Shown here: piece after piece, positions 7,824 to 26,346 of the stretch
How the letters are laid out: every line of letters starts with the position of its first letter
Position numbering within the stretch: the first letter of the stretch is position 1
Notes under the pieces: generated by a model
The model's input: the letters and a program-made list of their open reading frames with translations, nothing else
What the model was told of the DNA's origin: nothing
Databases searched by the model: none
DNA from: an uncultured Chloracidobacterium sp.
GTDB lineage: Bacteria > Acidobacteriota > Blastocatellia > Pyrinomonadales > Pyrinomonadaceae
NCBI GenBank assembly: GCA_964526245.1
Contig: CAZGLZ010000006.1
Span: 2,215-66,214 of the forward strand
Length of the DNA stretch: 64,000 nt
Reading direction: 5' to 3'
Made by a program: the position numbers and the translations under genes

Positions 7824-10800
7824 ACTACCCGAGCATCCGGATAGAAGGTGCGATCCTTTCGCCCGATATACTTGAGCATCTTGTCGATGGTGCGAAAGGC
7901 CAGGGGCCAAAGGACTTCGGCTTTGAGTCGGGCACGAAGGTAAAAGATGAGATCGCTCGTGCATGGGCAGATGCTCAGGACTATTGGCGGATCTTCCAGC
8001 GGAAGCTCGCAACGGTAAAGGAAGGCACAGCCGCTACCACCGAAACGCGCCAGAACTGGATAATCCCGCTCCTTGGCCTTCTCAAGTATGAGGTCGAGTT
8101 TCAAAAAGCTGGTACTGAAATCCATGGCAGGAACTACGCGATTTCACATCGCATAACCAATCGCGCCAACACGCCGCTTCATATTGTCGGATACAACGAC
8201 CAGGCCGGGCTTGACCGAAAGTCGGCAGCGTCACGAATGTCCGCCCATGCCCTTGTCCAGCAATATCTTAATCTCTCCGATGAGCTTTACGGAATCGTCA
8301 CTAACGGGCGGGTAGTTCGCCTTCTCCGTGACAGTTCCCGACTGGTAAAACAGAGCTACCTTGAGTTCGACCTCGATCGTATCTTTACTGATGGCCTCTT
8401 CGCCGATTTCGCGATTCTATTTCGGCTGTTGCACGCCACGCGTTTGCCCTTAAAGGCAGAGGAAGCTGCCGAAAGCCTGATCGAAAAATACCACCAGGAT
8501 TCGCTCGATTCAGGCGCAAGAATTCGCGATGGACTTTCCGAGGCGGTTAAGGAAGCAATTCTGAATTTCGCCAATGGCTTTCTTTCCAATCCGGCAAACA
8601 CTCGGCTTTGCGAAGCGATCGAGGTGGGAATACTTACTCCCGATGATTACTATCGCAACCTTCTTCGCCTGATCTACCGGCTGCTCTTTCTGATGGTTAT
8701 AGAGGAGAGAGACCTGGTTTTTCCGTCGGATTCCGAAAACAGAGAAAGACTTCAGCACTTCCGAAGGATCTACCGAGACTATTACAGCGTTGGGAGACTC
8801 AGGCAGCTTGCCGAAAAGCGCTATCTCGCTGACAAGCGGCATCACGACCTATGGATGGCACTGGTATCCACCTTCAAGCTTTTCGAGGCAGATGGTCCCG
8901 GTGAGAAGCTAGGCATTAAGCCGCTTGCCGGCGATCTGTTTGGCCCGAGGGCGATCGAGGAGATCTTCGACGCTCGGCTCGGGAACGACGTACTTCTCGG
9001 CTGCCTGCGATCGCTCGGTTTATACGAGCACCCGGACACACGGCAGATGATCCGCGTAAATTACGGTGCTCTCAATGTTGAAGAATTCGGTTCCGTTTAC
9101 GAAGGTCTTCTCGAATACGAACCGGTGTTTGATCTATCCGGTTCAACTCCTCGCTTCGGCTTTGTCGAAGGCGACGAGCGTTCCCGTACCGGATCTCACT
9201 ACACACCTGACGAACTCGTCCAGCCCCTGATCAAGCACTCACTCGATTACCTGATCGAAGATTGTGTCCGTAGCCCGCACGTAAGTAAGGGCTCCTCCGA
9301 CAGCTCCCCTCCTTACGAAAGAGGGGTGGACGCCGAAGGCGGACGGGGTGGTTCTCCCACTACCGCAGAGCAACGCCTCCTAGATCTTCGCGTAGCAGAC
9401 ATAGCCTGCGGTTCCGGTCATATCTTGCTCGCCGCCGCGAGAAGAATTGCGACCGAGCTTGCCACCGTCCGCACCGGCGAAGAGCAGCCCTCGCCGACAG
9501 CTTACCGACAGGCACTCCGCGATGTTATCCGCAATTGCATTTACGGCGTTGACGTAAATCCCCTGGCAGTTGAGCTGTGTAAGGTCGCTCTTTGGCTTGA
9601 GGCTCACAATCCGGGCGAGCCGCTGAACTTTCTCGATCACCACATCAAATGCGGCAACGCGATCGTCGGTTTTGTCAGCAAGGAAGAAGTAGACCGTGGC
9701 GTTCCAGAAGAGGCGTTCGCCCGGATGCCGGACGACCACGCAGACTTTATCAAGGTGGTCAGAAAAAAGAACAAGGACGAGCGAAGAGAGCGGCAGCGTG
9801 TCTTGAACTTCACCGACGAGCGTCGCGGCGAAATCGCAAATGTGCTTGAGCGTTGGCGCGTGATTACAGCGATGCCGGAACGCTCGCCCGCTGAAATCGA
9901 TGTCAAGAAGGCGGCTTTCGAAAACTTCTCAACACAGGGTGCGGCTTATGAACTGGAAAAGCTCGCATCGGTGCCGGTAGCACAGTTTTTTATTCCGAAG
10001 GTGCCGGAGAATAGTTCTAAGCTGATGACCGACGCTGAGTTTCGCGACTACTGGTCCGGCGAGCGTAGACCGCAAAGCCAGTCTTTCGCGGCGGCCGAAG
10101 CCGTTGCGAGTGAGAAACGATTCTTTCATTGGTTTCTCGAGTTTCCTGGCGTGATGGAACGCGGCGGCTTCGATTGTATTCTTGGGAATCCGCCCTATCT
10201 TGGAAGCCAGGCATTGAGCGGCAATTTCGGCTATCCTTTCTGTCATTTTCTTAAATATGAATACGCACCGGCAGGTTTAAGCGACCTGATAGTTTATTTC
10301 CTCAGGCGTATATTTTGCCTTCTGCGCCCAAGCGGCTTCACTGCGTTCATCACGACAAATTCCATCAAAGATGGGGATAACAGACGCGACGGCCTGGATC
10401 AAGTCTTATCGACGGGCGGAACGATCAATATGGCGGTGCGTGCGATACGTTGGCCTGGTCGGGCAAATGTTGTTGTTTCGCAGTTGGCTATACACAAGGG
10501 GGACTGGATCGGTCCTCGACTACTCGACAACCGAGAAGTAGAAACAATTAATGCGTATTTTGAGGATAATCTACCGGAACCGGATCCAGTACCTTTGCAC
10601 CCCAACAAGAATAGAGTCTTTCAAGGGGTTATTTTCCTGGGCGAGGGATTCTTACTTTCCACCGAGGACGCAGATGCCTTGTTGAGATTAGATCCGAGAA
10701 ATCACGAGGTGATTTACCCGGTCATCAACAACAAAGAAATGAACGGTTCACCGGACCAAAGTTCGACTCGAAAAATTATAAACTTCCATAATTGGCCAAT

Positions 10801-11707
10801 AGAACGAGCTCAGACGTATTCAGAGCCCTTCAGAATTGTGGAAGAGAAGGTTCAACCGTTTCGAGCTACTCAAAATAGAGCGCGAAATCGGGACGTTTGG
10901 TGGGTCTACGCAGAGCATCGACCTGGATTGAATCGTGGGATTGCTCGTTTGCCATTTTGCTTCGCGGTCGGGCGCGTGACAAAACATCTGACCTTCTCGC
11001 GGGTGGCGACAAATTATGTTTTTTTGAACAACCTGTACATATTCACGACCTCACGATGGGACCTTTTTACTGTCGTCCAGAGTGCGATCCACGAAGTGTG
11101 GGCTCGGAATTATAGCATGACGTTGAAGCAGGATTTGCAGTATTCGCCATCGGACTGCTTCGAAACGTTCGCCTTTCCTGACGATCTTTGGAACGAAGAA
11201 AATGCCAAACTCGCTGAGATCGGCGAGCGTTATCACGAACACCGCAAACAGCTAATGCTGATGCTCTGGCTCGGCCTGACAAAGCTCTACAACCTTTTCC
11301 ATGATACGGAGCTATCCGTCGAAATGGTCGCCGATGTTAGCGGCAAAGACGAGGACATCGCCCGCGAAGGCTACGCTGTGCTCGTAGAACTCCGCCGCCT
11401 CCACGTCGAAATGGACAATGCCGTCCGCGACGCCTACGGCTGGCAGGACCTCGACCTCGGCCACGGCTTCCACCAGGTCGAAACCCTCCCCGAAAACGAC
11501 CGCACCCGCTACACCATCAGCCCCACCGCCCGCAAAGAAGTCCTAAAGCGTCTCCTCGCCCTAAACCACACCCGCGCCGCCGAGGAAGCAGCTCATGCCG
11601 CCGCCGCAAAACCGTTCAAAAAGAAAGGTGGCAAGAAATCGAAATCAGACCCGGCAACAGACGGCGACAACCCGCTTTTAGCGGCGGGACCGTTGTTTGA
11701 ACAATGA
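7820..11707 (+). CDS. Large gamma-class N6-adenine DNA methyltransferase (Eco57I/PglX/DrmMI-like), 1295 aa
   Basis: SAM-binding motif VADIACGSGHILL (nt ~9389-9425) and catalytic ILGNPPYLG (nt ~10181-10205). Start overlaps the SNF2 stop (ATGA). Confidence 0.85.
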   Translation: MNYPSIRIEGAILSPDILEHLVDGAKGQGPKDFGFESGTKVKDEIARAWADAQDYWRIFQRKLATVKEGTAATTETRQNWIIPLLGLLKYEVEFQKAGTEIHGRNYAISHRITNRANTPLHIVGYNDQAGLDRKSAASRMSAHALVQQYLNLSDELYGIVTNGRVVRLLRDSSRLVKQSYLEFDLDRIFTDGLFADFAILFRLLHATRLPLKAEEAAESLIEKYHQDSLDSGARIRDGLSEAVKEAILNFANGFLSNPANTRLCEAIEVGILTPDDYYRNLLRLIYRLLFLMVIEERDLVFPSDSENRERLQHFRRIYRDYYSVGRLRQLAEKRYLADKRHHDLWMALVSTFKLFEADGPGEKLGIKPLAGDLFGPRAIEEIFDARLGNDVLLGCLRSLGLYEHPDTRQMIRVNYGALNVEEFGSVYEGLLEYEPVFDLSGSTPRFGFVEGDERSRTGSHYTPDELVQPLIKHSLDYLIEDCVRSPHVSKGSSDSSPPYERGVDAEGGRGGSPTTAEQRLLDLRVADIACGSGHILLAAARRIATELATVRTGEEQPSPTAYRQALRDVIRNCIYGVDVNPLAVELCKVALWLEAHNPGEPLNFLDHHIKCGNAIVGFVSKEEVDRGVPEEAFARMPDDHADFIKVVRKKNKDERRERQRVLNFTDERRGEIANVLERWRVITAMPERSPAEIDVKKAAFENFSTQGAAYELEKLASVPVAQFFIPKVPENSSKLMTDAEFRDYWSGERRPQSQSFAAAEAVASEKRFFHWFLEFPGVMERGGFDCILGNPPYLGSQALSGNFGYPFCHFLKYEYAPAGLSDLIVYFLRRIFCLLRPSGFTAFITTNSIKDGDNRRDGLDQVLSTGGTINMAVRAIRWPGRANVVVSQLAIHKGDWIGPRLLDNREVETINAYFEDNLPEPDPVPLHPNKNRVFQGVIFLGEGFLLSTEDADALLRLDPRNHEVIYPVINNKEMNGSPDQSSTRKIINFHNWPIERAQTYSEPFRIVEEKVQPFRATQNRARNRDVWWVYAEHRPGLNRGIARLPFCFAVGRVTKHLTFSRVATNYVFLNNLYIFTTSRWDLFTVVQSAIHEVWARNYSMTLKQDLQYSPSDCFETFAFPDDLWNEENAKLAEIGERYHEHRKQLMLMLWLGLTKLYNLFHDTELSVEMVADVSGKDEDIAREGYAVLVELRRLHVEMDNAVRDAYGWQDLDLGHGFHQVETLPENDRTRYTISPTARKEVLKRLLALNHTRAAEEAAHAAAAKPFKKKGGKKSKSDPATDGDNPLLAAGPLFEQ
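9275..9365. repeat. Short palindrome-rich REP/MITE-like segment lying in frame inside the methylase ORF
   Basis: Hairpin cccctc(9306-9311)/gagggg(9321-9326) and gtgg(9348-9351)/ccac(9357-9360). The +1 frame reads PLLTKEGWTPKADGVVLP. The methylase frame reads SSPPYERGVDAEGGRGGSPTT, just upstream of motif I. Confidence 0.35.
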
Positions 11708-11717
11708 GATTAGTATG
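11468..11717 (+). repeat. Direct repeat copy A: functional 3' end of the methylase plus spacer up to the next ATG
   Basis: Shares the identical 21-mer gaaaacgaccgcacccgctac (11492-11512) with 14873-14893. Flanking similarity runs through gccctaaaccac and the GPLF-encoding tail. Confidence 0.75.
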
Positions 11718-12416
11718 AAGATAGCTGCGATTAATCACGAAACTTGGTACAAGGAACACATAAGCGTTTTCGAGGTGCCAATACTTGAATCCTACATCGA
11801 CTCTGTTGAAAAACAGGTTCAAATTGGATTTGACACATGGAAGGACAGATTGAAATCCTCAGGGCACTTTGGCGATCCTGATACGGAATATTATCAGGAG
11901 ATCAGTGCCGTTGACGGTCTTGATGATTCAACCTTTCATCTTCCCTCCATATTCGATGAGTACTTTCCTCAGCTTCAACGACAGAGTGCCCTGATCGTCC
12001 TTTATTCTTTTCTAGAACGTGAGCTACTACATCTATGCGAGCTTTGTCGTAAATCAAACAACGCTCCGCTCAAAGCAAAAGACCTTTGTAGGGACGGTAG
12101 CGACATTGCCCGCTGCCAGATGTATCTCGAAAAAGTGATAGGTTTAGGAGTTACAAGAGACGATGCAAAATGGCAGGAAATCGACCACGGAATACGAATC
12201 GTCCGCAATCAAATAGTTCACCACGAAGGCAAAGTGCCGGATACCAACTCCAGAGACTTTAACAAGCTTGAAAACCACGTTAAGCAGCAAAACAATTCGG
12301 TTTCAATAGACAAAATATCTTCATCTATCGTTCTCAACAATGGCTACCTTAAATACACACTCGATACGTTCAACGAGTTCTTTAAGACTTTGGATGATGC
12401 CTTGTCAAACCCTTGA
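11715..12416 (+). CDS. HEPN-domain protein (Rx4H), hypothetical RNase
   Basis: IRIVRNQIVHHEG with RNQIVH at nt 12204-12221. Predicted all-helical protein. ATG at 11715 is the point where homology to repeat copy B ends. The ORF track start at 11697 is TTG. Confidence 0.55.
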   Translation: MKIAAINHETWYKEHISVFEVPILESYIDSVEKQVQIGFDTWKDRLKSSGHFGDPDTEYYQEISAVDGLDDSTFHLPSIFDEYFPQLQRQSALIVLYSFLERELLHLCELCRKSNNAPLKAKDLCRDGSDIARCQMYLEKVIGLGVTRDDAKWQEIDHGIRIVRNQIVHHEGKVPDTNSRDFNKLENHVKQQNNSVSIDKISSSIVLNNGYLKYTLDTFNEFFKTLDDALSNP

Positions 12417-12599: not shown

Positions 12600-12935
12600 G
12601 TGGAACAGATTCATAATGATGACAATCGTAAATTGACGTCATCCGAAGAAAAGCTCGCTGGGATTGCGGATCGAGGCGAAGGAGAACGACGGGACGAATG
12701 GCACCTTGATCCACCGGACTCCTGCGACTATTGTCACCGAAGCCTCTCAAATTCGATCTTCTTCGTCGATGGTAAGGTGAAGGGCAGTTTTCAGTGGGGA
12801 AATATGTGTGCAGAATGTTTCTTTACCTACGGCGACGCGATTCGGTGGGGAGCGGGCCAACTCTACCAACAGGTCGGGTCGAATGAGTGGCTAATGGTCG
12901 GTGGCTTCCCGACGGACGAGCCGGAACCGTTTTAA
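12600..12935 (+). CDS. Small Cys4 (zinc-ribbon-like) protein, hypothetical
   Basis: GTG start preceded by a strong SD taggaggga (12581-12589). CDYC...(about 30 aa)...CAEC pattern. Confidence 0.5.
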   Translation: MEQIHNDDNRKLTSSEEKLAGIADRGEGERRDEWHLDPPDSCDYCHRSLSNSIFFVDGKVKGSFQWGNMCAECFFTYGDAIRWGAGQLYQQVGSNEWLMVGGFPTDEPEPF

Positions 12936-12985
12936 CCCATATAGATCCTCGCCCGGAAGCCCGAGAGATTTTCATTAACTACTCT

Positions 12986-14539
12986 ATGTCTGAACCTGTA
13001 ATTGACCCAATTGATTTTCCACAGTCTGAACTTGTTATCGGGCTCGTCGCCCCAGTTGGTACCGACACGCGGTTTATTGTCGATACGATTTCCCAGCGTC
13101 TCGATCGATTCAATTACACGCGTGAACCTTTGAAGTTAAGCGAGTATCTGAAGACCCTAGACTTGGGTGTTCAGATCGATGAAAATACAGCTTTCCGACG
13201 CGTCGTCACGCTCATGGATGCCGGCGACGCATTGCGAAAAAAAGTTGGCGGCGGAGGTGAGAATATTGACGGTTCGGGGGACGCTCTTGCTCGAATTGCC
13301 GTTTCTGAGATTCACAAACGGAGGCCAATCGATACAGCGTCAAACGAAAAGAACGAATCACGCATCGCAAGACCCAAAACAGCTTATATTCTTGACTCGC
13401 TTAAGCATCCAGACGAAATTGTTTTGTTGCGACGAATTTATGGAGATGGGTTCCTCTTGATTAGTATCTCTTCCTCTCGACAGACCAGGAAAGAGAATTT
13501 GGAAAGACGCGGTATGTCAGGTGACGAAGCCGATACCTTAATCAGCCGTGATGAGAATGAGAGCGACCCTTTGGGACAGAAAACTCGAGACGCATTTCAC
13601 TTAGCTGACGCATTTATCGACGCCAATAATCTTGAAACTAGTCGTTCGCAGATTGAGAGAATACTCGACATTCTGTTCGGTGCTCGGTATAAAACGCCAA
13701 CGTTTGCGGAATACGCAATGTTCCTTGCTTTTGCATCAGCCTTTCGATCAGCAGATCTTTCAAGGCAGGTTGGCGCGGCAATTGCATCCAAAACAAATGA
13801 AATTCTTGCGGTCGGTTGTAATGACGTCCCTCGGTTCGGAGGAGGCTTATACTCTAGTGACGACGCCGAAGATCACCGGGACCATAAGCTCGGCGTTGAC
13901 CCGAATGTTCAGAAGCGGAACGAGATCTTCAGCAACATCGCGCAAATGCTGAAGGATAAATATCCAATGGCAGTTGACGGAAAGTCTGTGGAGGAGTTGA
14001 CGCAGGCGGTGAAAAGGGATTTGAAGGCAAGCGTTTTGTCGAGTCTTACTGAGTTTGGACGAACGGTTCATGCCGAAATGGATGCGATTGTAAGTTGTGC
14101 TAGGAGCGGAATCAGTGTTCGCGGGGGTACGCTATATACAACAACATTTCCGTGCCATAATTGTGCCCGTCATATCATTGCTGCTGGTATCGATACTGTT
14201 GTCTACGTTGAACCGTATCCTAAGAGCCAGGCTGGAGAATTGCATGAGGATTCGATAGACTTGGAAACGCAGTCTGCGAATAAGGTAACTTTTAAGCCAT
14301 TTGTTGGAATCGGATCTCGGCGCTTCATGGACTTGTTTTCGATGGGAATGAGTTCAGGCTATCCAATTGAAAGAAAGTCCAACGAATCCGGTGAAAAATT
14401 AGATTGGACGCCTGAGGCCGGTCGCCTAAGGGTTCCAATGTTACCCACGTCATATATCGAACGCGAACGCCTATCAATACAGAAACTGGACAAACTTGAG
14501 GAGGAAAGTGATGTCGATAAAGAAACGGAAGGACACTGA
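12986..14539 (+). CDS. AvcD/DcdV-like anti-phage deoxycytidylate/dCTP deaminase (N-terminal P-loop-kinase-like domain plus C-terminal CMP/dCMP zinc deaminase)
   Basis: Deaminase zinc motifs HAEMDAI (nt ~14069) and PCHNCARHI (nt ~14150). N-terminal LVIGLVAPVGTD glycine-rich loop. Size ~517 aa from ATG 12986; an alternative GTG at 12887 gives 550 aa. Confidence 0.7.
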   Translation: MSEPVIDPIDFPQSELVIGLVAPVGTDTRFIVDTISQRLDRFNYTREPLKLSEYLKTLDLGVQIDENTAFRRVVTLMDAGDALRKKVGGGGENIDGSGDALARIAVSEIHKRRPIDTASNEKNESRIARPKTAYILDSLKHPDEIVLLRRIYGDGFLLISISSSRQTRKENLERRGMSGDEADTLISRDENESDPLGQKTRDAFHLADAFIDANNLETSRSQIERILDILFGARYKTPTFAEYAMFLAFASAFRSADLSRQVGAAIASKTNEILAVGCNDVPRFGGGLYSSDDAEDHRDHKLGVDPNVQKRNEIFSNIAQMLKDKYPMAVDGKSVEELTQAVKRDLKASVLSSLTEFGRTVHAEMDAIVSCARSGISVRGGTLYTTTFPCHNCARHIIAAGIDTVVYVEPYPKSQAGELHEDSIDLETQSANKVTFKPFVGIGSRRFMDLFSMGMSSGYPIERKSNESGEKLDWTPEAGRLRVPMLPTSYIERERLSIQKLDKLEEESDVDKETEGH

Positions 14540-14717: not shown

Positions 14718-14779
14718 TTCGTATTGGGTTTTAACCATTTAAGATTGTGATGTACTCTCTCCGATCGTCGAATCTTTGT

Positions 14780-15101
14780 CGCTGGTTTAACTTATTCCAA
14801 TCTCAAGATCTGCGACGCTGTTGGATCGGCCCGAGCCTTTGCTTTTGTTTCCAGGAGGCTCAAGCCCTCCGTGAAAACGACCGCACCCGCTACTCCATCA
14901 GCTCCAATGTCCCCCCAAAAGTCCTAAAACACCTCCCAGCCCTAAACCACCGACGCGCCGCCGAAGAAGCCGCCACCGGCAAAACCAAGAAGCCAAAAGC
15001 CAAGAAATCAAAAACAAAGAGCCAAACCCCGAAACCAGGCACCGACGACGACCCGCCCCCCCCCTCCTAGCCTCCGGTCCTTTGTTTAAGCATGATGAAT
15101 A
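14780..15101 (+). pseudogene. Decayed 3' remnant of a second DrmMI-like methylase (direct repeat copy B)
   Basis: Reads FQEAQALRENDRTRYSIS..VLKHLPALNHRRAAEEAA against FHQVETLPENDRTRYTIS..VLKRLLALNHTRAAEEAA in the intact gene. Upstream CDAVGS and the tail SGPLFKHDE* lie in other frames, indicating frameshifts. There is no upstream ORF body. Confidence 0.7.
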
Positions 15102-15103
15102 GT

Positions 15104-15739
15104 ATGTGGTGTAACAATTTGAGACAAAGCAATTTGAGCGTTGCGAACTATAACAACCTCCATCCCGAAGGACAGAGGTTAATTCGCAGTTGGTTTGACC
15201 GCTCCTGGCAATCGTACGAAGGGAATGACGATGCTTTCGAAGCATTCATTTTTTTGTGGATTTCGTTCAATGGTTGGGCGACGTGTATTACCGGTCTATT
15301 TCGAGACGCAAGTATTATCGATTCTGTCGCTAACAACCAGGTAATTGCGACTGAGTTCATCCGGTTAGTCCGCAACGACCGTGAGTTCGCTGAAAACGTC
15401 AGAGAACTTTGCGACATGCTGCCGATTTTTGATCCGCGAAGACTGCCGAATAGAAACTGGGGATTGTTTTCGCCTGATCAAGAAGGTCGCCGGCGGCAAA
15501 TACAACAATATCTGCAAACTGGGACGAAATCTTTTAACCCCCCGTGCTGGAAAGATCACGTAGACGCCGGTGGTCGAATGCCCACGGATTGGCCGCATGT
15601 CTTAAAGGCGATCTACCAGATCCGCTGTAACCTCTTCCACGGGCAGAAAACCGCTTTTCAAGAACTTGATAGGAGACTGGTCGATCTCGCCTTCAAGATT
15701 CTTCACCGGTTCGTGTCCGACGGTGGCTACCTTAACTAA
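15104..15739 (+). CDS. Second, unrelated HEPN-like protein (Rx4H)
   Basis: IYQIRCNLFHGQK with RCNLFH at nt 15623-15640. Occupies the same position relative to the methylase tail remnant as the first HEPN gene. Confidence 0.5.
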   Translation: MWCNNLRQSNLSVANYNNLHPEGQRLIRSWFDRSWQSYEGNDDAFEAFIFLWISFNGWATCITGLFRDASIIDSVANNQVIATEFIRLVRNDREFAENVRELCDMLPIFDPRRLPNRNWGLFSPDQEGRRRQIQQYLQTGTKSFNPPCWKDHVDAGGRMPTDWPHVLKAIYQIRCNLFHGQKTAFQELDRRLVDLAFKILHRFVSDGGYLN

Positions 15740-15811
15740 AGGATAACCGATACTGAGGCATGGCAAACTCGTCGAATCAGCAAAGCTTTGTCGGTGATAT
15801 GAAGAACTTTC

Positions 15812-17821
15812 ATGATTGAAATTGGTGACATACTGAACGGGATTCGCGAAGAGATTCGTGCAACGCCGGACTATGTCGCGTTTACGATAAAACGGAGTAT
15901 CCGCGAGGGCTCAATCTGGAAGATCATTCTGTCCTCGGATGAAAAGAGCCTAAATGAACTAGATGAAGCACTGGAAGGGGCACTCGTCTGGTGGCCAGGC
16001 AATCCGCCCGGAACGGCCGAGGTCCTTTCGGTAGTTTCGGAAGAGTCGCAACTGAACCTCCGATTTGCGACCCAAACGCCCCCTGAGAACGGAAAGATTC
16101 TCCGCGTTTACCTACCGCAGTATCTAAATAAGCTCGAAGAACTTTGGTCGGATGACATTTGGGCAAATCGGTGCTCCGAATGGCTTAAACGGGTAAGGGC
16201 CACGAACGCGAAAGATGACGTTATTTCCCTGAAGACCTCCAGCTTTCGGTGGCTCCGAGCGTGTCAGAAGAGGGCGTTTGCCCTTCCTGCTTTCAAGGTG
16301 AGTTTCCTGCATGGCCCCCCAGGCACGGGAAAGACGCGAACACTTGGGGCGTTGGTGGCTCAGTTTCTAAGTACGTTCCAAAACGCGCGTGTTCTTTTGC
16401 TTTCGACGACGAATGTCGCAGTCGATGAAGCGATCACTGCTGTCGATTCGGCGTTGCTCGAAGCGCCCGCGTTGAATGGCGGCCCGCGAATTCGGATGAA
16501 CGAGTGCAAGCGGATTGGGAACCAATTTGTTGCTACAAAATACAAGGGACGCCAACACTTGCTTCCAAAGCAGGAACCCGAAATCCTCGAGCAACTAATC
16601 CTCTTAGAGGCCTCACGGCCACGCGAAGAAGATGTCCAAGCCTACGCCACTTGGAAGGAAAGGACCGAAACTTTACGCGCTCAAATGCGTTCCAAGGCAA
16701 TCAACACATTCAGGCATTCGCGGCTTATCGCGATGACGACAACGCTTGCGGTTTATAGCTTCGATGACCTTCGCGAGCACTACCCGGCTGATCTGATCGT
16801 ATTCGATGAATCGAGCCAAGTTGGGCTTGCCCACGCTCTGGCACTTGCCCCGCTCGGAAAGCGGGCTCTTTTTACAGGGGATCCCAATCAGCTTGCCCCG
16901 ATATGTCGGTCGAAGGTGCAGGATTCTGCGGAGTGGCTTGGTCAATCCATGTTCTCCCTCCAAAATGACTTTGAGGAGGCAACGTGTTTCCTTGACGAAC
17001 AGTCCCGAATGACAGAGCCGATCTGTCATGTTGTAAGCAAAACGTTTTATCAAGGAAGGCTAAAGGTGGCTTCGGGCTGCGACACGAAATGGAAACTAGC
17101 GCGGGACGTTTCGTCCTCGCATGCCGAGAAAAATGCCGTAAGCATCCACCGTGTCAAAAAAGAGGGCCAGTATTCTAAGAAGTACGGCGGCTATATAAGG
17201 TATGAATCGGCAGAGCTGATCTCCGCTCTTGTTGGTCGGCTATCAAGTGAACAAGATGCAGCCGATATTCTTGTCTTGACCCCATTTCGCGCTCAGCGTC
17301 GGTTGATAAAAACTTTCTTAAAGAATGGAACGATTAGGGGTGTCAGAGTCAGTACCGTGCACCGTGCCCAGGGAAGCGAATGTCACACGGTTATTTTTGA
17401 CCCCGTCTCAGGAAGCAATAATTTTCTAAATACTGAAGATGCACCTCGGCTAATTAACGTAGCACTGAGTCGAGCAAAGGCCAGACTTGTCGTATTCCTG
17501 TCACCTGACGACTTGGTGAACCCTACACTACAGAAGTTCAATGCGGTAGCTGCGATTCTACCCGGCATTATGCAGAATGACGGCTCGAGGGTGCCGAGAA
17601 TTCAGCAGCATCGCCATATTTCAAGAATACTCGACGAGAACTTTCCGCAGAACGCAATCAACAAAGAAATAACAATACCTTCGAAGAATGGCCTGATGTT
17701 TGGGCGAATTTTGGAGGTTTCCTCCGATGGCGAGAGCTTCAAAATGCAAGTGTACGAAACCGGGGAAGTTAAGAAATTTATCACAGAATTTGTTCGGAAA
17801 AATGCGAAAGGACGTATATAA
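15812..17821 (+). CDS. Superfamily 1 Upf1/DNA2-like helicase (AAA_11/AAA_12 type, COG1112-like)
   Basis: FLHGPPGTGKT, LLLSTTNVAVDE, LIVFDESSQ, FTGDPNQL, VSTVHRAQGSE, NVALSRAK. The first ~150 aa and last ~80 aa are unassigned. Confidence 0.85.
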   Translation: MIEIGDILNGIREEIRATPDYVAFTIKRSIREGSIWKIILSSDEKSLNELDEALEGALVWWPGNPPGTAEVLSVVSEESQLNLRFATQTPPENGKILRVYLPQYLNKLEELWSDDIWANRCSEWLKRVRATNAKDDVISLKTSSFRWLRACQKRAFALPAFKVSFLHGPPGTGKTRTLGALVAQFLSTFQNARVLLLSTTNVAVDEAITAVDSALLEAPALNGGPRIRMNECKRIGNQFVATKYKGRQHLLPKQEPEILEQLILLEASRPREEDVQAYATWKERTETLRAQMRSKAINTFRHSRLIAMTTTLAVYSFDDLREHYPADLIVFDESSQVGLAHALALAPLGKRALFTGDPNQLAPICRSKVQDSAEWLGQSMFSLQNDFEEATCFLDEQSRMTEPICHVVSKTFYQGRLKVASGCDTKWKLARDVSSSHAEKNAVSIHRVKKEGQYSKKYGGYIRYESAELISALVGRLSSEQDAADILVLTPFRAQRRLIKTFLKNGTIRGVRVSTVHRAQGSECHTVIFDPVSGSNNFLNTEDAPRLINVALSRAKARLVVFLSPDDLVNPTLQKFNAVAAILPGIMQNDGSRVPRIQQHRHISRILDENFPQNAINKEITIPSKNGLMFGRILEVSSDGESFKMQVYETGEVKKFITEFVRKNAKGRI

Positions 17822-18241: not shown

Positions 18242-18496
18242 TCATGAAAGATCGAGTTCGGAATCATCGTCGATAAGGAGATCCGTGCTTACGCCGGCAA
18301 GCCGAGCATACTTCAGAAGCAGTGGATACGAAGGTTCGCGAGTTCCTCGTTCAAATGCCGAGATCGTACTGCGAACCACTTCCTCTTCAACCCCGAGCCT
18401 TTCGATCAACCCGTCTTGAGAAAGTCCGAGCGACAGTCGGATCTGCCTTAGCTTCCTGGCCAAATGCTTCGGTTTCGGCCGAGAGCGTGTTCCCAT
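18242..18496 (-). CDS. XRE-family helix-turn-helix transcriptional regulator
   Basis: LRQIRLSLGLSQDGLIERLGV....ISAFERGTREPS is the typical HTH_3 pattern. Confidence 0.8.
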   Translation of the reverse strand: MGTRSRPKPKHLARKLRQIRLSLGLSQDGLIERLGVEEEVVRSTISAFERGTREPSYPLLLKYARLAGVSTDLLIDDDSELDLS

Positions 18497-18518
18497 TAGA
18501 AGTTACCTCCTAATGGGA
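18491..18518. promoter_or_regulatory. Perfect 9-bp inverted repeat spanning the XRE start codon and SD
   Basis: tcccattag (18491-18499) and ctaatggga (18510-18518), 10-nt spacer containing the SD (aggaggt on the minus strand). Confidence 0.35.
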
Positions 18519-18753
18519 ATTTGGTGATTCGAATGCCCTTGCGAGTAGAGCCATTTGACTCTATACTCTTGCCGTCAGGTCGCTGAGCCGCAGAGATGCA
18601 AATCGACCCAGCATAAGCTGTCAGAAACGAGCCCTCCGGTTGATGGGCATACCGACAAACATATTACGCCAACTTTCGAGGGATGGAAATCTCGCGAGGC
18701 ACTGGTTTCAGATAACCGAAAAGCACTCAACTTTTCGTCTTGGTGAATAAAAA

Positions 18754-19272
18754 ATGCTAGGTATTGAATTTTTGTCGCCGTTGTATTTGATCGTGCTTGC
18801 GCTTTACTTCCTAACGTCATCGATCAAGATGTTTGATATTCGAATGACTCAAGCTAAGAACGGAGCGTGGGGAGAAGACGCTCGACAGGAAGCGCAGAGC
18901 CTGACACTGCCCGGATGGGTCGGCGCAGTCTTTTACCTTGATTTCCTTCTTGGTGGGCTCCTCCTCCTTTTTAATTGGAAGGCCACTCTTGTCGTTTGGA
19001 TTGTCCGCTTTGTCCTCAAAGTCCTTCCGGTACTAGAAACGGTCGGAAATCTGCTTATGTTTCCGTTTCGGCCCAAACCATTAGACCGGGAAAGAGAAGC
19101 TAGAGATCTCGAGCGAGTCCTTCGAGATCTAGCGGAACGAGAGACCAGAGGGGATACCTTTGCGGAGGTACATCGAAGAATGGCGGACATGCTGGCTCAA
19201 GAGGCTGATAGGGAACGAGATGCGAAAAGGGGTGGAACAGCTCGGAATTTCAACCGAGAAAAGGAGAATTAA
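18754..19272 (+). CDS. Membrane protein (about 3 TM) with highly charged C-terminal tail, hypothetical
   Basis: Hydrophobic stretches LSPLYLIVLALYFL, WVGAVFYLDFLLGGLLLLF and LVVWIVRFVLKVL, then a D/E/R-rich tail. Confidence 0.5.
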   Translation: MLGIEFLSPLYLIVLALYFLTSSIKMFDIRMTQAKNGAWGEDARQEAQSLTLPGWVGAVFYLDFLLGGLLLLFNWKATLVVWIVRFVLKVLPVLETVGNLLMFPFRPKPLDREREARDLERVLRDLAERETRGDTFAEVHRRMADMLAQEADRERDAKRGGTARNFNREKEN

Positions 19273-19334
19273 GTTGCCATTACTGTTTCCTCCGCGGTGG
19301 TTAGGACTATGCTAGCGAAAATATGCGTTCGGTA

Positions 19335-19362
19335 TTGACATTTTATGAAATTTGAGTAGTCT
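19335..19362 (+). promoter_or_regulatory. Sigma70-like promoter candidate
   Basis: TTGACA (19335-19340), 16-nt spacer, TAGTCT (19357-19362). Confidence 0.25.
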
Positions 19363-19372
19363 GAAATATGAG

Positions 19373-19433
19373 ACGCCTGCTTCGAAAACGAGTTCCTCTA
19401 TGGAATAACTTCGAGGCAGGCGTTTATTGTTTT
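19373..19433 (+). terminator. Long hairpin with U-rich tail
   Basis: 14-bp stem 19373-19386 / 19410-19423 (one G-U pair) followed by ttattgtttt. Confidence 0.45.
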
Positions 19434-19434
19434 G

Positions 19435-19473
19435 GCCCGTGTATATCAGCAGATGTACACGGGCTTTTTGTTT
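19435..19473 (+). terminator. Canonical rho-independent terminator
   Basis: gcccgtgta (19435-19443) / tacacgggc (19456-19464) followed by tttttgttt. Confidence 0.65.
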
Positions 19474-19527
19474 GCCCAGAAGCTCAAAAGGAATCGCTTC
19501 TGCAGATGAAGAAAAGAGATACGAGAT

Positions 19528-20754
19528 ATGAAGAAGCAAAGGAAAACAGTCTACGTAGATATGGACAACGTCCTGGTGGATTTCCCGTCCGGCATAGCTA
19601 GGCTAAGCGACGAAGATCGCATCGAATATGAGGGACGATATGACGACTGCCCCGGAATCTTCGCCTTGATGGAACCGGTTCCGGGAGCGGTCGAAGGTTT
19701 CCGGAGCGTTGCCGAACGTTTCGACACGTACATTCTGTCGACCGCCCCATGGGCTAACTCCTCGGCGTGGATGCACAAGGCCGAATGGGTGCACAAGCAC
19801 TTCGGAACCGTCGAAGGAACACCCGCATACAAGCGACTGATCATCAGCCATCACAAGAATCTCAACCGCGGCCACTATCTGATCGATGATCGGACAAAGA
19901 ACGGAGCCTCGGAGTTCGAAGGCGAACATATTCTGTTTGGATCCGAACAGTTTCCCGACTGGAAAACGGTCGTCGAATATTTGATTCAGGCCGAAAGGCC
20001 GGTCGCCGAGAATCGCGACAGATTCTTCCAACCTTTCCCGGAACATCATAATGGGACTTATAAGGTGGTTCCGATCGAAAACCTTATTCCCACAAAAACT
20101 AACCCGGACAAGTCTGTTGAGAACGCTCTCACGCACATCCGCGGACTCGACTCAGGTAACGATGGAGAACACCCTCGTAAACCACTCGACGTACTGGATA
20201 ACGGCGACGGAAGATACTCCATAGTCGACGGAAACGCTACGCATGCAGCCGCACAAATTCTTGAGTGGAGAGAACTGCCGGTGCGTGTAATGGAAAACAC
20301 TCCCGTATTGGACAGGGCCATCCAGATCGCCGCACAGGTCCATGCGGGACAGACCGATAAAGCCGGTGCTCCTTACCTTCTACATCCGATTCGGTTGATG
20401 ATGAAGATGAAATCCGACGCCGCCAAGATCGTCGCAGTGCTGCACGATGTCATTGAGGACTGTTGGCCGAAAGGTAGCTGGACATTCGAACGGCTCAGAA
20501 GCGAGGGTTTTTCCGAAGCCGTCGTTGAAGCACTCAAATGCGTTACAAAGCTGCATGAGAATGAGGACTACGATGAGTTCATTGACCGGTCAATGAGTAA
20601 CGCGATTGCACGCGAAGTAAAACTGGCCGATCTCGAAGACAACATGAACATGCTACGAATGAGCGAGTTGCGACCGAAGGATCTTGAACGGCTCGCAAAG
20701 TACCACCGCTCGTGGCACAGACTATCCGCTGCCGGCGAAGGAGTAAATCTATGA
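19528..20754 (+). CDS. Three-domain fusion: NT5C-type 5'(3')-deoxyribonucleotidase (HAD), ParB/Srx-like domain, and RelA/SpoT-type HD (small alarmone hydrolase-like) domain
   Basis: VYVDMDNVLVDF (DxDxV HAD motif) and the LIDDR region. YSIVDGNATHAAAQILEWRELPVRV is ParB-N-like. AAQVHAGQTDKAGAPYLLHP...VAVLHDVIED...KLADLEDNM is the HD_4 pattern. Confidence 0.7.
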   Translation: MKKQRKTVYVDMDNVLVDFPSGIARLSDEDRIEYEGRYDDCPGIFALMEPVPGAVEGFRSVAERFDTYILSTAPWANSSAWMHKAEWVHKHFGTVEGTPAYKRLIISHHKNLNRGHYLIDDRTKNGASEFEGEHILFGSEQFPDWKTVVEYLIQAERPVAENRDRFFQPFPEHHNGTYKVVPIENLIPTKTNPDKSVENALTHIRGLDSGNDGEHPRKPLDVLDNGDGRYSIVDGNATHAAAQILEWRELPVRVMENTPVLDRAIQIAAQVHAGQTDKAGAPYLLHPIRLMMKMKSDAAKIVAVLHDVIEDCWPKGSWTFERLRSEGFSEAVVEALKCVTKLHENEDYDEFIDRSMSNAIAREVKLADLEDNMNMLRMSELRPKDLERLAKYHRSWHRLSAAGEGVNL

Positions 20755-21551
20755 CAATGCCAATAGATCTAATACTTGTTCGCCACGGACACAGCGAAGG
20801 GAATCTGGCCGTGAGTAGGTCCAAGAAAGGAGACGATAGTCTGTATACTCCCGATTTTCGAGAACGTCCGGGACATCGTTGGAGGCTGACGGCCGAGGGA
20901 CAAGAGCAAGCAGCAACCGCCGGCAAATGGATACTCGACAACATAGGAGTTCAGTTCGATCGATACTACGCGTCACCCTACGTGCGAACTCAGGAAACGG
21001 CCGCTTTGCTCGATCTTCCCGGTGCCGAGTGGCGGCTCGACCAGCGACTTCGCGAACGCGACTGGGGCGAGATAGGATCGGTTCCGATACCGGAACAGGC
21101 CAGTCTCTATCCTCGAAACATAGTCCTACAGAAAACAGATGCCCTTTACTGGCGGCCACCTGGTGGTGAGTCGATAGCGGATGCTCGCATGCGTGTCCGG
21201 ACCTTCTTCGACACGCTGCACCGCGAGTGCGAAGGCCAATCCGTCGTCGTCGTAACGCACGGCGACATTATCTCAGCCGTGAGAGGAGCTATCGAATATC
21301 TAAGCGATGAGGAATGGCTGGCGTTCGACCGTGACGAATCGAAGCGGATCCTGAATTGCCATATCTATCACTATTCCCGACGCGACCCGTCCACCGGCGA
21401 GGTCGGGAAATATCTGAGCTGGCGGCGTGCTGTCTGCCCTACCGACACCGGTATTGACACGGGCTGGGAAACGATCACCCGCAAGAGATTCAGTAACGCA
21501 GAGCTGCTCGAACGCGTTAGCCGCGTCGAGCCAACCGTGGAGGTGCGATGA
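20751..21551 (+). CDS. Histidine phosphatase superfamily (phosphoglycerate-mutase-like) protein
   Basis: LILVRHGHSEGN (RHG motif) and VVVVTHGDII. ATG 20751 forms an ATGA overlap with the upstream stop. Confidence 0.8.
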   Translation: MTMPIDLILVRHGHSEGNLAVSRSKKGDDSLYTPDFRERPGHRWRLTAEGQEQAATAGKWILDNIGVQFDRYYASPYVRTQETAALLDLPGAEWRLDQRLRERDWGEIGSVPIPEQASLYPRNIVLQKTDALYWRPPGGESIADARMRVRTFFDTLHRECEGQSVVVVTHGDIISAVRGAIEYLSDEEWLAFDRDESKRILNCHIYHYSRRDPSTGEVGKYLSWRRAVCPTDTGIDTGWETITRKRFSNAELLERVSRVEPTVEVR

Positions 21552-22870
21552 TCATCCCCGACCCAATAAAGAAGACGGTCAAGATACCGATAAGGATCGT
21601 CGATGGCCAGGTCCGTTACTTCTACGGCGGCGAGCTCCCGAAGCTCAAAAACGTAGTTGGCGACCTCGTCATTCCCGCCTTTGCTCTCCTTGATCAAGAA
21701 CAGGCAAAAGAACTTTCCCACGAAGACGTCTCCGAAATGCTGCCTGCCGGTTCGGAGTTGATGATCAACGTTAGGGTCGATACCTACTCCGAAGGGGTAC
21801 TGACGGAATTGCGGGATAGCTCGGCAGACCTTCCTGGTTTTGCCCCAAAGGAAGGTTTTGTAAGGTTTTGTTTAGACGAACCTTTATATCTGTGGCATCG
21901 CGGGACCAAAACGAGTCAGCTTAACCCGTGCAAAGGCCATTTTGTCGACTTGGATGGAGAGGCAACAAGCCTTAATCACGCATACACGATCGCTTCTAAG
22001 AAATTCGAGACGAAGAGGACGTCGAACACCGGGAACGTCTTCAAGCATGTTTATTACAAAAGCAAGCACGGATGGGAACCGCTTGAGTGGCTTCGCGAAA
22101 GGCTCGACGCACAATTTGAACAAAGGTACCTCAGGTCCGAAAATGCAGAGATCGGACCGCCCGAAGGTGCTCGCGGTTTGTTTCCAAAAGTCGAAGAATT
22201 TCCCGATGTGGAAGTTGAGAAAGTCCCGGAAACGGAAACCGAACCACACATCAATCAACGCTTTCCTGATGATTCCACCATTAAGACGTTTGACGAATAT
22301 ATGGCTGAAGGATGCTATCACTATGATCAAACATACTGGCGATACAACATAAGCGGCGAGCTCAGAACGATCCCCCTTCGAATTCGCATGAAGGATTTTC
22401 GGTTGTCAAAAAGTCAGAAAAGGGTTCTGAGAATTAACGCGGATCTTGACCTCCAAAAGCTGCCATTGAATGTGACGAAGGATGGTGAAGAATGCAAGTT
22501 GTTTAAGCTCCACAACGTCCGGTTCGGGGAACATGCCCCGAAAAAGGTAAACCTCCCCCTGGGAGAACGGAATAGGAAATTCTGTGTTTTAGACGACGGC
22601 AAGCTTATCGCAGCGAGCTTTTTTGAAATGGGGGCCAACGCCTCACACGGCTATTACTGCATTTTCGACCCCTCCATCGAATGGCGAAGCCTCGGCATTT
22701 TCACAATGCTTAAAGAGATCGAATATGCCAGAGAACAAGCAAACGAGTTTTATTACCTCGGCTATGCTTTTGATAAGCCGACTCTCTATGATTACAAAAA
22801 ACGCTTCCACGGACTCGAGAGCTACGACTGGAAAACCGGAGAATGGGTCGACTTCAAAAGATCAGTCTAG
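21548..22870 (+). CDS. Protein with unassigned N-terminal ~260 aa and C-terminal Bpt/ATE-type aminoacyl-tRNA-protein transferase domain
   Basis: FRLSKSQKRVLR and YCIFDPSIEWRSLGIFTMLKEIEYAREQANEFYYLGYAFDKPTLYDYKKRFHGLESYDWKTGEWV match the conserved Bpt/ATE_C pattern (SxG..., YxYLGYxI..., xYKxxFxPxE). ATGA overlap with the upstream gene. Confidence 0.6.
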   Translation: MIIPDPIKKTVKIPIRIVDGQVRYFYGGELPKLKNVVGDLVIPAFALLDQEQAKELSHEDVSEMLPAGSELMINVRVDTYSEGVLTELRDSSADLPGFAPKEGFVRFCLDEPLYLWHRGTKTSQLNPCKGHFVDLDGEATSLNHAYTIASKKFETKRTSNTGNVFKHVYYKSKHGWEPLEWLRERLDAQFEQRYLRSENAEIGPPEGARGLFPKVEEFPDVEVEKVPETETEPHINQRFPDDSTIKTFDEYMAEGCYHYDQTYWRYNISGELRTIPLRIRMKDFRLSKSQKRVLRINADLDLQKLPLNVTKDGEECKLFKLHNVRFGEHAPKKVNLPLGERNRKFCVLDDGKLIAASFFEMGANASHGYYCIFDPSIEWRSLGIFTMLKEIEYAREQANEFYYLGYAFDKPTLYDYKKRFHGLESYDWKTGEWVDFKRSV

Positions 22871-25900: not shown

Positions 25901-26346
25901 TTATTGGTCACCGAATTTATCGCCAGGGCGCTAGGTTCGGCCCCTACTGAAATCGTCATGGTCGAATTGTCCGCTCCATCGATAACGGTGACACTTGCAC
26001 CACCTTCATTCGCAACATAAATCCGATTCGTTGTTGGGTTGATCGCCAGCGAATTGGGACCAACGCCCGTAGCAATCGATGTTGTAGAGTTGTTTGTACC
26101 GTCTATAACCGACACGTTGTTCGCCGATCTGTTTGCGACATAAATCCGGTTTGTCAGCGGATTGACAGCAACGGCAGCAGGGCCACCACCAACTGGAATA
26201 TCTCCAATTGAGGTGTCGGCCTGCACGATCGTTTCGATAAAGTGGAAGTTGATGATCTGGCCAGTCATCACTAAAACCAGAAGCAAGACAAATCGAGACG
26301 TCTTTTTAAGCAATCCCGACGCGCTCGAAGGCTTAACCAATTTCAT
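22954..26346 (-). CDS. Secreted surface protein: about 16 YVTN-type beta-propeller repeats plus 6 C-terminal FG-GAP/VCBS-like repeats
   Basis: N-terminal signal/TM LLLVLVMTGQIINF. Repeated N[KR]IYVAN..S..VTVIDG..NS. C-terminal DFDGDGKTDISVFRP-type repeats. Confidence 0.8.
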   Translation of the reverse strand: MKLVKPSSASGLLKKTSRFVLLLVLVMTGQIINFHFIETIVQADTSIGDIPVGGGPAAVAVNPLTNRIYVANRSANNVSVIDGTNNSTTSIATGVGPNSLAINPTTNRIYVANEGGASVTVIDGADNSTMTISVGAEPSALAINSVTNKIYVANTSLGSNSVTVINGDDHTTTTVAVGMGPAAIAVNPVTNLIYVVNNFSGSVTVIDGTSNATNTFNIGFNPRGIAINFVTNMIYVSIQGESVVKVINGVDNSVASITTGSQPVALAVNSVTNKIYVANQSSNNVTVINGVDNSTGTVPSGSSPTSVAINSFTNKVYVANFGGASVSVINGIDNSQSTVTAGSSPIDLAVNPNTNKIYSANRDSASVTVIDGSYNTTAFVTTGSRPSAVAINPVTNKIYVANCGSACSGGTGSGSVTVIDGANNSSTSVINGTGPVAIAVNPITNLIYVANKSNNVTVIDGTDNSTTTVAAGSFPEAIVVNPVTNKIYVANNNSNNVTVIDGSSNSATNVPAGIGPNAIAVNSVTNEIYVTNRNSNNVTVINGYTNSTTSIAVGNGPEGIAVNDSTNRIYVTNRDSNTVTLIDGASKAVTTIPVGTSPDGVAVNPLSNRIYVANSGGNVTVINGTNNSTSNIQGGVNPLAVAVNLSNNKIYVANFSLAVAGTVSAIDGTNNSRTFIPSADNPSSVAVNPITNRVYVTNQGSDNLTVITPVPTNSIPLNTSITPLPGNIANHPNPHFELFASSTYSPTAPQPRNIYFQLNSTNGMWTRASNTASTATTLTAKAITSNLRPGIHIIYFYATDGTDATSVNPIADDPSGNGKRDTKAGSALASSPMLGGINAYVFLVRPKAGIDFDGDGKTDISVFRPVGGSGSEWWYLRSSDGGNRAFAFGEATDTIVPADFTGDGKTDLAFWRPASGEWFVLRSEDSTFFAFPFGAAGDVPSPADFDGDGKSDATVYRPSTNTWFTLRSSDGQVAATPFGTAGDRPVPADYDGDGKADVAIFRPTGGSGGGEWWYLRSSDGANRAFAFGSATDLTVPGDYTGDGKADLAYFRPSTGEWYVLRSEDSSFYAFPWGANGDLPAPGDYDGDGKIDAAVFRPSNSNWFALRSTGGPLILQFGTTGDRPLPNAFVR
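24225..26190 (-). repeat. Coding tandem repeat, about 129-bp period (YVTN blades)
   Basis: 16 recognisable IYV[AT]N...VTVI[DN]G units in the translation. Confidence 0.7.

Follow-up and report, generated by a model that had tools for sequence, protein, structure and literature searches.

Within a 64,000-nt stretch of a contig from an uncultured Chloracidobacterium sp. (CAZGLZ010000006.1), referred to here as the window, we analyzed a gene pair that consists of a small gene, denoted p215, and the gene of a Upf1-like superfamily 1 (SF1) helicase. The open reading frames (ORFs) follow one another without interruption on the plus strand from the start of the window to position 17821, the end of the helicase gene, and the pair stands at the end of a defence island around a core similar to that of DISARM class 1. 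The features of the pair are as follows:

15104–15739, plus strand: p215, the small HEPN-like gene, encoding a predicted all-alpha protein of 211 aa from an unannotated family, HEPN-like by motif and predicted topology
15623–15640, plus strand: the codons for RCNLFH (R-x4-H) of p215, within IYQIRCNLFHGQK
15812–17821, plus strand: the Upf1-like SF1B helicase of 669 aa, with a family-specific N-terminal region of about 155 aa and a C-terminal one of about 107 aa

Both ORFs are intact, and exactly 72 nt separate them (15740–15811). The p215 ORF spans positions 15092–15739, and because the homologues begin at MWC, its start is probably at 15104. An earlier note on this DNA had correctly placed the gene 72 nt ahead of the helicase but with a product of 212 aa, whereas the ORF from 15104 encodes 211 aa plus the stop codon. 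Given that the two genes are only 72 nt apart on one strand and that no terminator was predicted in the gap, they are probably co-transcribed in this locus. A scan for sigma-70 promoters, which detected fewer sites than in shuffled sequences and none ahead of p215, is uninformative for this organism.

A word-index search found 21 relatives of p215, and a profile search of 1.84 billion representatives retrieved 1,882 at E ≤ 1e-3; of these, 716 remained at E ≤ 1e-10 and 172 at E ≤ 1e-30. The family is sizeable and unannotated, with about 1,900 clusters at 50% identity, and falls into two size classes, a long form of about 220 aa and a short form of about 160 aa. The family has an invariant motif, Y-x2-R-[C/N]-N-L-F-H-G-x-K; its residues R, N, L, F, H, G and K do not vary in a set of 21 sequences and reach a conservation of at least 90% in a set of 150. 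A W/F-rich helix, FIxLWISFNGW, is the second conserved feature. The RCNLFH segment corresponds to R174–H179 (numbered from 15104) and shows full or at least 90% conservation in sets of 21, 44 and 150 sequences. AlphaFold predicted all-alpha folds for p215 of the window (pLDDT 87, pTM 0.86) as well as for a 161-aa relative of the short form (pLDDT 94, pTM 0.89). According to DSSP, R-x4-H is located in both models at the C-terminal end of the penultimate helix and is followed by a loop and a long last helix; a large insert lies between helices 2 and 3, and the order of the helices fits the HEPN core. In HEPN proteins, R-x4-H is positioned at the end of helix 3, ahead of the loop to the last helix (PMC3710099). 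Because the position of the motif and the insert between helices 2 and 3 match this published description, we consider both to be HEPN-like.

No match to p215 was found in Pfam at E ≤ 10, and NCBIfam and PADLOC likewise gave none, even at permissive thresholds. Among 150 representatives of the family, 6 weakly matched the PADLOC model of DzbB (best E 5.3e-6), which in Dazbog is paired with the DUF262 protein DzbA, and these matches hint at a distant link between the p215 family and Dazbog.

The helicase carries the motifs GPPGTGKT (residues 168–175), DESSQ (332–336), GDPNQLAP (356–363), VHRAQGSE (516–523) and NVALSRAK (549–556). Motifs I, II, III, V and VI are intact, and all motifs are invariant in 34 relatives. 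Pfam AAA_12 (97.9 bits) and AAA_11 (61 bits, cut-off 27) score above their gathering thresholds and span residues 156–562, and the nearest sequences in the PDB are Sen1, Dna2, IGHMBP2 and Upf1. By its sequence, the protein is an intact Upf1-like SF1B helicase. The earlier note had described a COG1112-type SF1 helicase of 669 aa with the motifs GPPGTGKT, DESSQ and VHRAQGSE; the ORF and all three motifs were located, and both the Upf1-like assignment and the defence context proved correct. The unassigned terminal regions mentioned there also exist, but they are somewhat longer than claimed, about 155 aa instead of 150 aa at the N terminus and about 107 aa instead of 80 aa at the C terminus. Both regions are conserved in the full-length relatives. 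The N-terminal 155 aa contain no domain of Pfam, NCBIfam or PADLOC; the invariant residues in this region are E14, D51, E55, W60, W61 and R84, with no lysine of the PD-(D/E)xK type among them. A search of plasmids retrieved no relative of the helicase at E ≤ 1e-30. Scans of viral contigs gave two weak matches to p215 and, for the helicase, distant SF1 helicases only. Matches so few, and so weak or distant, suggest that neither gene is phage-borne as a rule.

The earlier note had interpreted the pair as a possible split nuclease-helicase defence module. If so, homologues of the two genes should be found together in other genomes. However, an orthologous helicase was present in none of 80 metagenomic loci with p215 relatives (29–44% identity), where the downstream sequence extended over at least 1 kb in 53 and at least 2 kb in 36; one of the 80 had a distant SF1 match 3.6 kb away. 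A p215 homologue was equally missing from 24 loci of GTDB genomes with full-length relatives of the helicase and from six loci with close helicase relatives. The two genes were found together only in this same sequence (L008/L009 in our numbering of loci). A conserved system dedicated to HEPN plus Upf1-like helicase, comparable to Mokosh or Nhi, therefore fails the co-occurrence test, and we regard it as very unlikely. The defence island around the pair, the two intact ORFs with conserved catalytic motifs and the PADLOC matches of the helicase domain to MkoA (1.3e-51) and MkoC (2.5e-31) would speak for such a system. Yet the MkoA match covers only positions 632–1072 of the 1112 of the model, so that the N-terminal 630 residues are missing, as is the PLD partner, and p215 matches no PADLOC model at all. 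The unequal sizes of the two families in the word-index search, 21 matches for p215 versus 964 for the helicase (E ≤ 1e-10, among 8000 candidates scored), point in the same direction, but this difference may be largely methodological, given the 1,882 p215 relatives in the profile search.

Separately, the two genes recur in similar surroundings. In an Acidobacteria metagenome-assembled genome (MAG) and related contigs (L001, L004 and L006), p215 follows 13–17 nt after a series of genes for a DEAD/MZB helicase, an SNF2 helicase and an MmeI-type methylase, with no SF1 helicase; identity to the window is 55–57% for p215 and 68–77% for the methylase. The same DEAD/MZB-SNF2-methylase core is present in L087, L091 and L101, with p215 further along the tail and, in L091 and L101, a DUF262 protein 4–5 nt downstream of it. 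In L017, p215 closes a Type III-like operon and overlaps ResIII by 4 nt. The neighbours of the p215 relatives are overwhelmingly restriction-modification (R-M) and defence genes. In the metagenomic loci, these include Eco57I/MmeI and N6 methylases, HsdS/HsdR, GmrSD_N (DUF262), HNH, Mrr and DUF1156/DUF499, and further STAND NTPases, PglZ/BrxA and integrases. Three distant relatives of p215 were detected on plasmids of cultured bacteria, where p215-like genes end the arrays Dam-DpnII-SMEK-DUF2326-p215-like and AAA ATPase-hypothetical-p215-like.

In two unrelated records, a ThiF/E2/multiubiquitin-type conjugation cluster is located a few kb from a p215 relative, on the opposite strand: the Acidobacteria MAG (L001/L004, 10–15.5 kb) and a Methylocystis plasmid (L172, 1.2–3.7 kb). 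In the MAG, SLFN_AlbA_2 and pP_pnuc_1 genes are found near this cluster.

The helicase shows the same pattern. In L011 (66% identity), it starts 12 nt after the same methylase and is followed by a DUF2779 gene, and in L013 (64%), three other inserted genes of the same operon come before it. The 218-aa gene ahead of the L013 helicase was checked for homology to p215 and is no homologue. In L015 (52%) and L155 (60%), the helicase is terminal, after N6_N4 methylases and together with GmrSD, AIPR and ResIII; it is ahead of a BREX operon in L156 (53%) and between McrBC/BrxL and other defence genes in L154 (57%). Altogether, each of the two genes is found repeatedly without the other, co-oriented with defence operons that contain a methyltransferase and located at their 3' end, the hosts being DEAD/MZB helicase-SNF2-MmeI-type methylase operons, Type I/III-like R-M systems, BREX and DUF1156/DUF499 systems.

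A neighbor-joining tree places the helicase of the window in one clade with the copies of L011, L013, L015 and L154–L156. All seven sampled independent loci of this clade are in defence islands, and in six of the seven the helicase shares its strand with a gene, or gene remnant, of a DNA methylase. The more distant relatives (36–49% identity) in the 24 GTDB genomes are mostly found among ordinary genes without shared synteny; exceptions are L035, with the order BrxC-PglX-UvrD-helicase, and L036, with N6_N4 methylase-SNF2-...-helicase. These stand-alone copies raise the alternative that the window encodes an ordinary housekeeping or repair helicase next to an unrelated, hitch-hiking p215 ORF, and that the position in a defence island is incidental. 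Relatives with 36–49% identity indeed stand alone beside metabolic and housekeeping genes in Burkholderiales (Rubrivivax, Roseateles, Ideonella) and in Acidobacteria, and those of Burkholderiales group tightly in a lineage-specific clade. However, the stand-alone loci have no synteny in common, the window's helicase belongs to the different, defence-linked clade just described, and p215 has its own R-M and defence neighbourhood, so that we consider this alternative highly improbable. A helicase of a housekeeping orthologous group was named in the earlier note as a possible refutation; this may apply to the distant relatives among ordinary genes, whereas the helicase of the window belongs to a separate clade.

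The stand-alone relatives of about 690 aa in Rubrivivax, Roseateles, Ideonella and Rhizobacter (L021–L032 and L040; 36–40% identity) constitute a tight clade in metabolic-gene surroundings without common synteny; they could be housekeeping genes or solitary defence genes.

A probable history of the locus can be read from the genes upstream of the pair:

1–4968, plus strand: large DEAD/Helicase_C/MZB(DUF1998) helicase, the first gene of the DISARM-like core, 5'-truncated by the edge of the window
4965–7823, plus strand: SNF2 helicase, DrmD/DpdE-like (PADLOC DpdE 4.3e-180, DrmD 1.1e-80; Pfam SNF2-rel_dom and Helicase_C)
7820–11707, plus strand: MmeI/Eco57I-type N6-adenine DNA methyltransferase, DrmMI-like and intact (PADLOC DrmMI 5.7e-215)
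11715–12416, plus strand: p239, encoding a protein of 233–239 aa with the invariant GIRIVRNQIVH (R-x4-H), directly after the methylase
12887–14539, plus strand: anti-phage dCTP deaminase (NCBIfam NF041025, 476.7 bits, cut-off 400; PADLOC dCTPase 1.1e-166; Pfam dCMP_cyt_deam_1)
14822–15091, plus strand: decayed, frameshifted 3' end (the last approximately 85 codons) of an MmeI-type methylase gene, which stops just before the start of p215

In PADLOC, the large helicase matches DruE best (3.4e-80) and DrmA weakly (1e-9), and its homologues of 1722 aa carry the DEAD, Helicase_C and MZB domains. The methylase gene of L008, identical to that of the window, has the Pfam domains Eco57I, MmeI_Mtase and MmeI_TRD. 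p239, whose family has seven members in the word-index search, is probably a RiboL-PSP-like HEPN protein, as judged from weak matches of six of the seven to HEPN_RiboL-PSP (best E 0.018) and a match of p239 to RTasHEPN in PADLOC (6.4e-6). BLASTP detected no similarity between p215 and p239. The slot after the methylase, held by p215 in related operons, is taken here by p239, again a small R-x4-H protein. Behind it, the dCTP deaminase has the DISARM-like core on one side and the p215-helicase tail on the other.

The methylase remnant directly upstream of p215 contains a 125-nt direct repeat (14849–14973) that is 78% identical to positions 11468–11592 inside the 3' end of the intact methylase gene. 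Its translation reads ...LRENDRTRYSIS...LNHRRAAEEAA..., followed in a shifted frame by PLLASGPLFKH, up to the start of p215. In tblastn, the remnant has 55% amino acid identity to methylase residues 1208–1258, and the terminal PLLA(S/A)GPLF peptide is in another frame; the ORF listed at 14747–15070 is a pseudogene fragment of the methylase and not a real gene. The remnant is 78–80% identical to five methylase 3' ends, that of the window itself and those of four homologues. Because it is equally distant from all five, it is not a recent tandem copy, and we consider an origin by tandem duplication unlikely. The junction between methylase and p215 at the remnant is the junction that is found in L001 and L004. 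In addition, p239 and the dCTP deaminase have a lower GC content at third codon positions (GC3; 0.457 and 0.454) than the methylase (0.587), p215 (0.547) or the helicase (0.539), which suggests that p239 and the deaminase were inserted between the methylase and p215. As the decayed methylase end abuts the start of p215, the simplest reading of the locus is an ancestral order of methylase, p215 and SF1 helicase, and we infer this order. A donor segment with the homologous 3' part of a methylase gene, p239 and the dCTP deaminase would then have recombined into the locus, displacing the p215-helicase pair and leaving the old methylase end behind as a pseudogene.

Taken together, we favor with moderate confidence the explanation that p215 and the helicase constitute an accessory tail that has survived from a DISARM-like, methylation-based defence operon, and not a self-contained two-gene system. 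This was the fallback of the earlier note, which had considered the pair as the distal end of an ancestral methylase operon, and the remnant adjoining p215, the gene orders in L001, L004, L006 and L011 and the GC3 values all agree with it. The five-gene system that the note derived from it needs to be modified: the pair belongs with the methylase operon, but the organization is one of three core genes followed by an accessory tail that varies, rather than a fixed set. From locus to locus, the tail of the DEAD/MZB-SNF2-methylase operon family differs.

Several observations weigh against this explanation or parts of it. Concerning p215, Foldseek retrieved nothing at E < 0.1 with the model of p215 against PDB and BFVD or with the short-form model against PDB, and the HEPN-related 2gsc, 6tug Csm6 and MAE_28990-like phage protein appeared only in the noise. 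None of the 150 family members matched a HEPN family of Pfam, searches of the PDB with sequences and with profiles of 21 and 150 sequences gave only spurious matches to designed proteins and EF-hands, and hhalign, applied to the p215 and the RiboL-PSP-like p239 families, aligned nothing but the motif region, with a probability of 0.08%. The term "HEPN-like", which the earlier note had used, is thus appropriate for the invariant R-x4-H at the end of the penultimate helix but finds no counterpart in a HEPN family match; p215 would belong to the HEPN superfamily by motif and predicted topology, not by demonstrated homology, and statistical support is missing. Concerning the core, no PLD (DrmC) gene was found in the window or downstream of the core in related loci, with the start of the operon lying outside the window. 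The comparison covers many short contigs, and the surroundings of some close relatives were left out of it, namely the closest p215 (P0002, 74% identity, on a 2-kb contig) and the helicases P0024–P0026 and P0028. Concerning the pair itself, the 72-nt gap, the common strand and the lack of a predicted terminator mean that the two proteins could cooperate here, and relatives of p215 are often found beside some NTPase (UvrD, DUF262, DUF499, STAND or AAA).

The last two points lead to a different view, in which p215 would be an exchangeable effector or adaptor that acts together with whatever NTPase adjoins it. In this locus, the NTPase would be the helicase, and the two would form a two-gene abortive-infection module of unconserved combination. 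UvrD-type proteins are indeed encoded upstream of p215 relatives in L010 (NERD and UvrD) and L097 (UvrD_C). DUF262 proteins are the commonest immediate downstream partners, 4–13 nt from p215 relatives in seven loci, about four of them independent, and the weak DzbB matches of the family concern the partner of just such a protein. Further partners are DUF499 ATPases (L072, L089), STAND NTPases (L075, L082) and a 1914-aa AAA protein (L081), the plasmid-borne p215-like genes are next to DUF2326 and AAA ATPases, and fusions of HEPN domains to SF-I helicases have been described in R-M contexts (PMC3710099). However, almost every defence operon encodes an NTPase, so that adjacency to p215 discriminates only weakly. 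Moreover, L001, L004 and L006 have no NTPase downstream of p215, the nearest being those of the DISARM-like core, and the helicase clade is without p215 in every other locus seen. We consider a locus-specific module of this kind rather unlikely. A bolder version appears still somewhat less likely, namely that p215 represents a widespread, undescribed family of HEPN-like effectors or adaptors, distantly related to DzbB, that uses interchangeable NTPase sensors (DUF262, DUF499, STAND, UvrD or Upf1-like helicase) and that forms, with the helicase of this locus, a new two-gene module guarding a DISARM-like system by abortive infection.

For the accessory tail of a methylation-based operon, which remains our preferred explanation, the following mode of action is conceivable. 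p215 would act as a HEPN-type, metal-independent RNase or as a DzbB-like partner protein and would be kept inactive by a neighbouring NTPase or restriction complex. It would be released as a second-line, abortive-infection response to a phage that evades the methylation-based system or disables it, in the way of PrrC and Dazbog. PrrC is released when Stp of phage T4 inhibits EcoprrI (PMC3710099), and Dazbog is triggered by methylation of phage DNA (bioRxiv 10.1101/2022.08.27.505566). A dzbB deletion could not be transformed, possibly due to toxicity (bioRxiv 10.1101/2022.05.11.491447); for this reason, a DzbB-like p215 might be the restraining partner instead of the toxin. The Upf1-like helicase would be an independent add-on, a 5'-3' translocase that assists or extends the host system.

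Downstream of the helicase, the window contains further genes and repeats. An XRE-type helix-turn-helix gene is located on the minus strand at 18242–18496, together with a 172-aa ORF. These two are followed by a plus-strand run up to 22870. Its first product joins an NT5C (5'-deoxynucleotidase) to an HD_4/SpoT-like hydrolase domain, and the further genes encode a histidine phosphatase and an ATE_C arginyltransferase-like protein. The genes from 18242 to 22870 may represent a further, nucleotide-centred module of the defence island. A 1130-aa ORF on the minus strand (22954–26346) is composed of periodic repeats of about 123 nt and 135 nt (D1, D2, D3 and D10), and the 135-nt type is also present in a second gene about 21 kb away (44202–45623). 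Between 31.9 and 40.5 kb on the minus strand, the direct repeats D4–D8 and D11 (62–84% identity) connect genes at about 33.4, 36.1, 38.3 and 39.8 kb; their distribution across four genes therefore indicates a tandem paralogous gene family. Finally, a 44-nt inverted repeat, 82% complementary and with a 46-nt spacer, is found at 46816–46949.

The locus provides a clear example of methylation-based defence operons with a variable 3' tail of add-ons that appear to be swapped by recombination. On one and the same DEAD/MZB-SNF2-MmeI methylase core, the tails consist of p215 alone, of the helicase and then DUF2779, of inserted genes and then the helicase, of p215 plus a DUF262 protein, or of a second HEPN-like gene plus the dCTP deaminase. 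Two groups of proteins are candidates for functional work, the p215 family, for which Pfam, NCBIfam and PADLOC have no model, and the defence-linked clade of Upf1-like helicases of about 660 aa. If p215 is an RNase that is restrained by its host system, it would be another PrrC-like guard, in this case of DISARM-like systems, and could also illuminate the role of DzbB in Dazbog. The results also caution against naming two-gene systems on the basis of a single adjacency.

A comparison with known systems helps to delimit what has been found. Mokosh (the MkoA helicase plus the PLD protein MkoB, or the MkoC fusion) and Nhi (an N-terminal nuclease fused to an SF1 helicase) share with the window a Upf1-like (COG1112) SF1 helicase in a defence context, and the helicase core matches the MkoA and MkoC models. 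However, neither a PLD nor any other recognisable nuclease is encoded in or next to the helicase of the window, and no PLD domain was detected in the helicase, p215 or the ORFs between 11.7 and 22.9 kb; the putative nuclease would be an RNase-type HEPN protein instead and is not a conserved partner. Identity with Mokosh is ruled out by the lack of PLD and of the approximately 630 N-terminal residues of MkoA. Nhi was rejected since Pfam, NCBIfam and PADLOC revealed no nuclease domain; none of the 25 PADLOC matches listed of 30 was to an Nhi model.

Dazbog, which consists of DzbA with DUF262 and of DzbB, has points in common with the p215 family. Some p215 relatives weakly match DzbB, and the commonest partner directly downstream of p215 relatives has DUF262 as its only domain and is encoded, in some loci, in the tail of the same DISARM-like operon. 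In L091, L093, L101–L103, L128 and L085, DUF262 (GmrSD_N) proteins without DUF1524 are encoded 4–85 nt downstream of p215 relatives, and, given the weak matches to DzbB in the family, these pairs look like Dazbog in reversed order, some of them at the tail of DISARM-like operons. In the loci seen, p215 precedes the DUF262 gene, whereas the DUF262 gene is the first in Dazbog (bioRxiv 10.1101/2022.08.27.505566). For the window itself, identity with Dazbog was rejected, as its p215 has no DzbB match and no DUF262 gene is adjacent.

DISARM class 1 (DrmD, DrmMI, DrmA, DrmB and DrmC) has in common with the core the DrmD-like SNF2 helicase, DrmMI and a DUF1998/MZB helicase. The large helicase differs in being DruE-like, with the helicase and MZB parts fused, the gene order is different, and DISARM includes neither the SF1 helicase nor p215. 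Membership of the core in DISARM class 1 is thus partial: DrmD and DrmMI are present, and DrmC was not seen. Extension in the upstream direction via the SNF2 protein led to 4-kb contigs only.

The arrangement also fits the published concept of HEPN proteins linked to R-M systems, for which at least 16 clades have been described (Anantharaman et al. 2013, PMC3710099), among them PrrC in the Type Ic locus of EcoprrI. As in these cases, p215 is a small R-x4-H protein with the motif at the end of the penultimate helix, it is co-oriented with the adjacent genes and is inside or at the end of methylase or restriction operons, and by analogy a latent RNase as a second line of defence is plausible. 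p215 differs in that it has neither a Pfam HEPN match nor a match to a solved HEPN structure, its RNase activity being putative, and it is without the ABC-ATPase domain of PrrC. In contrast to the Type Ic system of the prr locus, the hosts of p215 are DISARM-like, Type I/III-like and DUF1156/DUF499 systems.

A parallel in gene organization is provided by multi-gene, methylation-based systems with accessory genes. Here, too, co-oriented add-ons are found inside the operon or at its edge, the cargo varies between homologous operons, and a known defence gene, the dCTP deaminase, is embedded beside unknown ones. Unlike in those systems, p215 and the helicase match no candidate model of PADLOC v2.0.0 over their full length, and the genes are appended at the 3' end, not nested in the core, and are now split from it by the p239-dCTP deaminase cassette. 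The arrangement is of a known kind, with the unannotated HEPN-like family and the defence-linked clade of Upf1-like helicases as new members.

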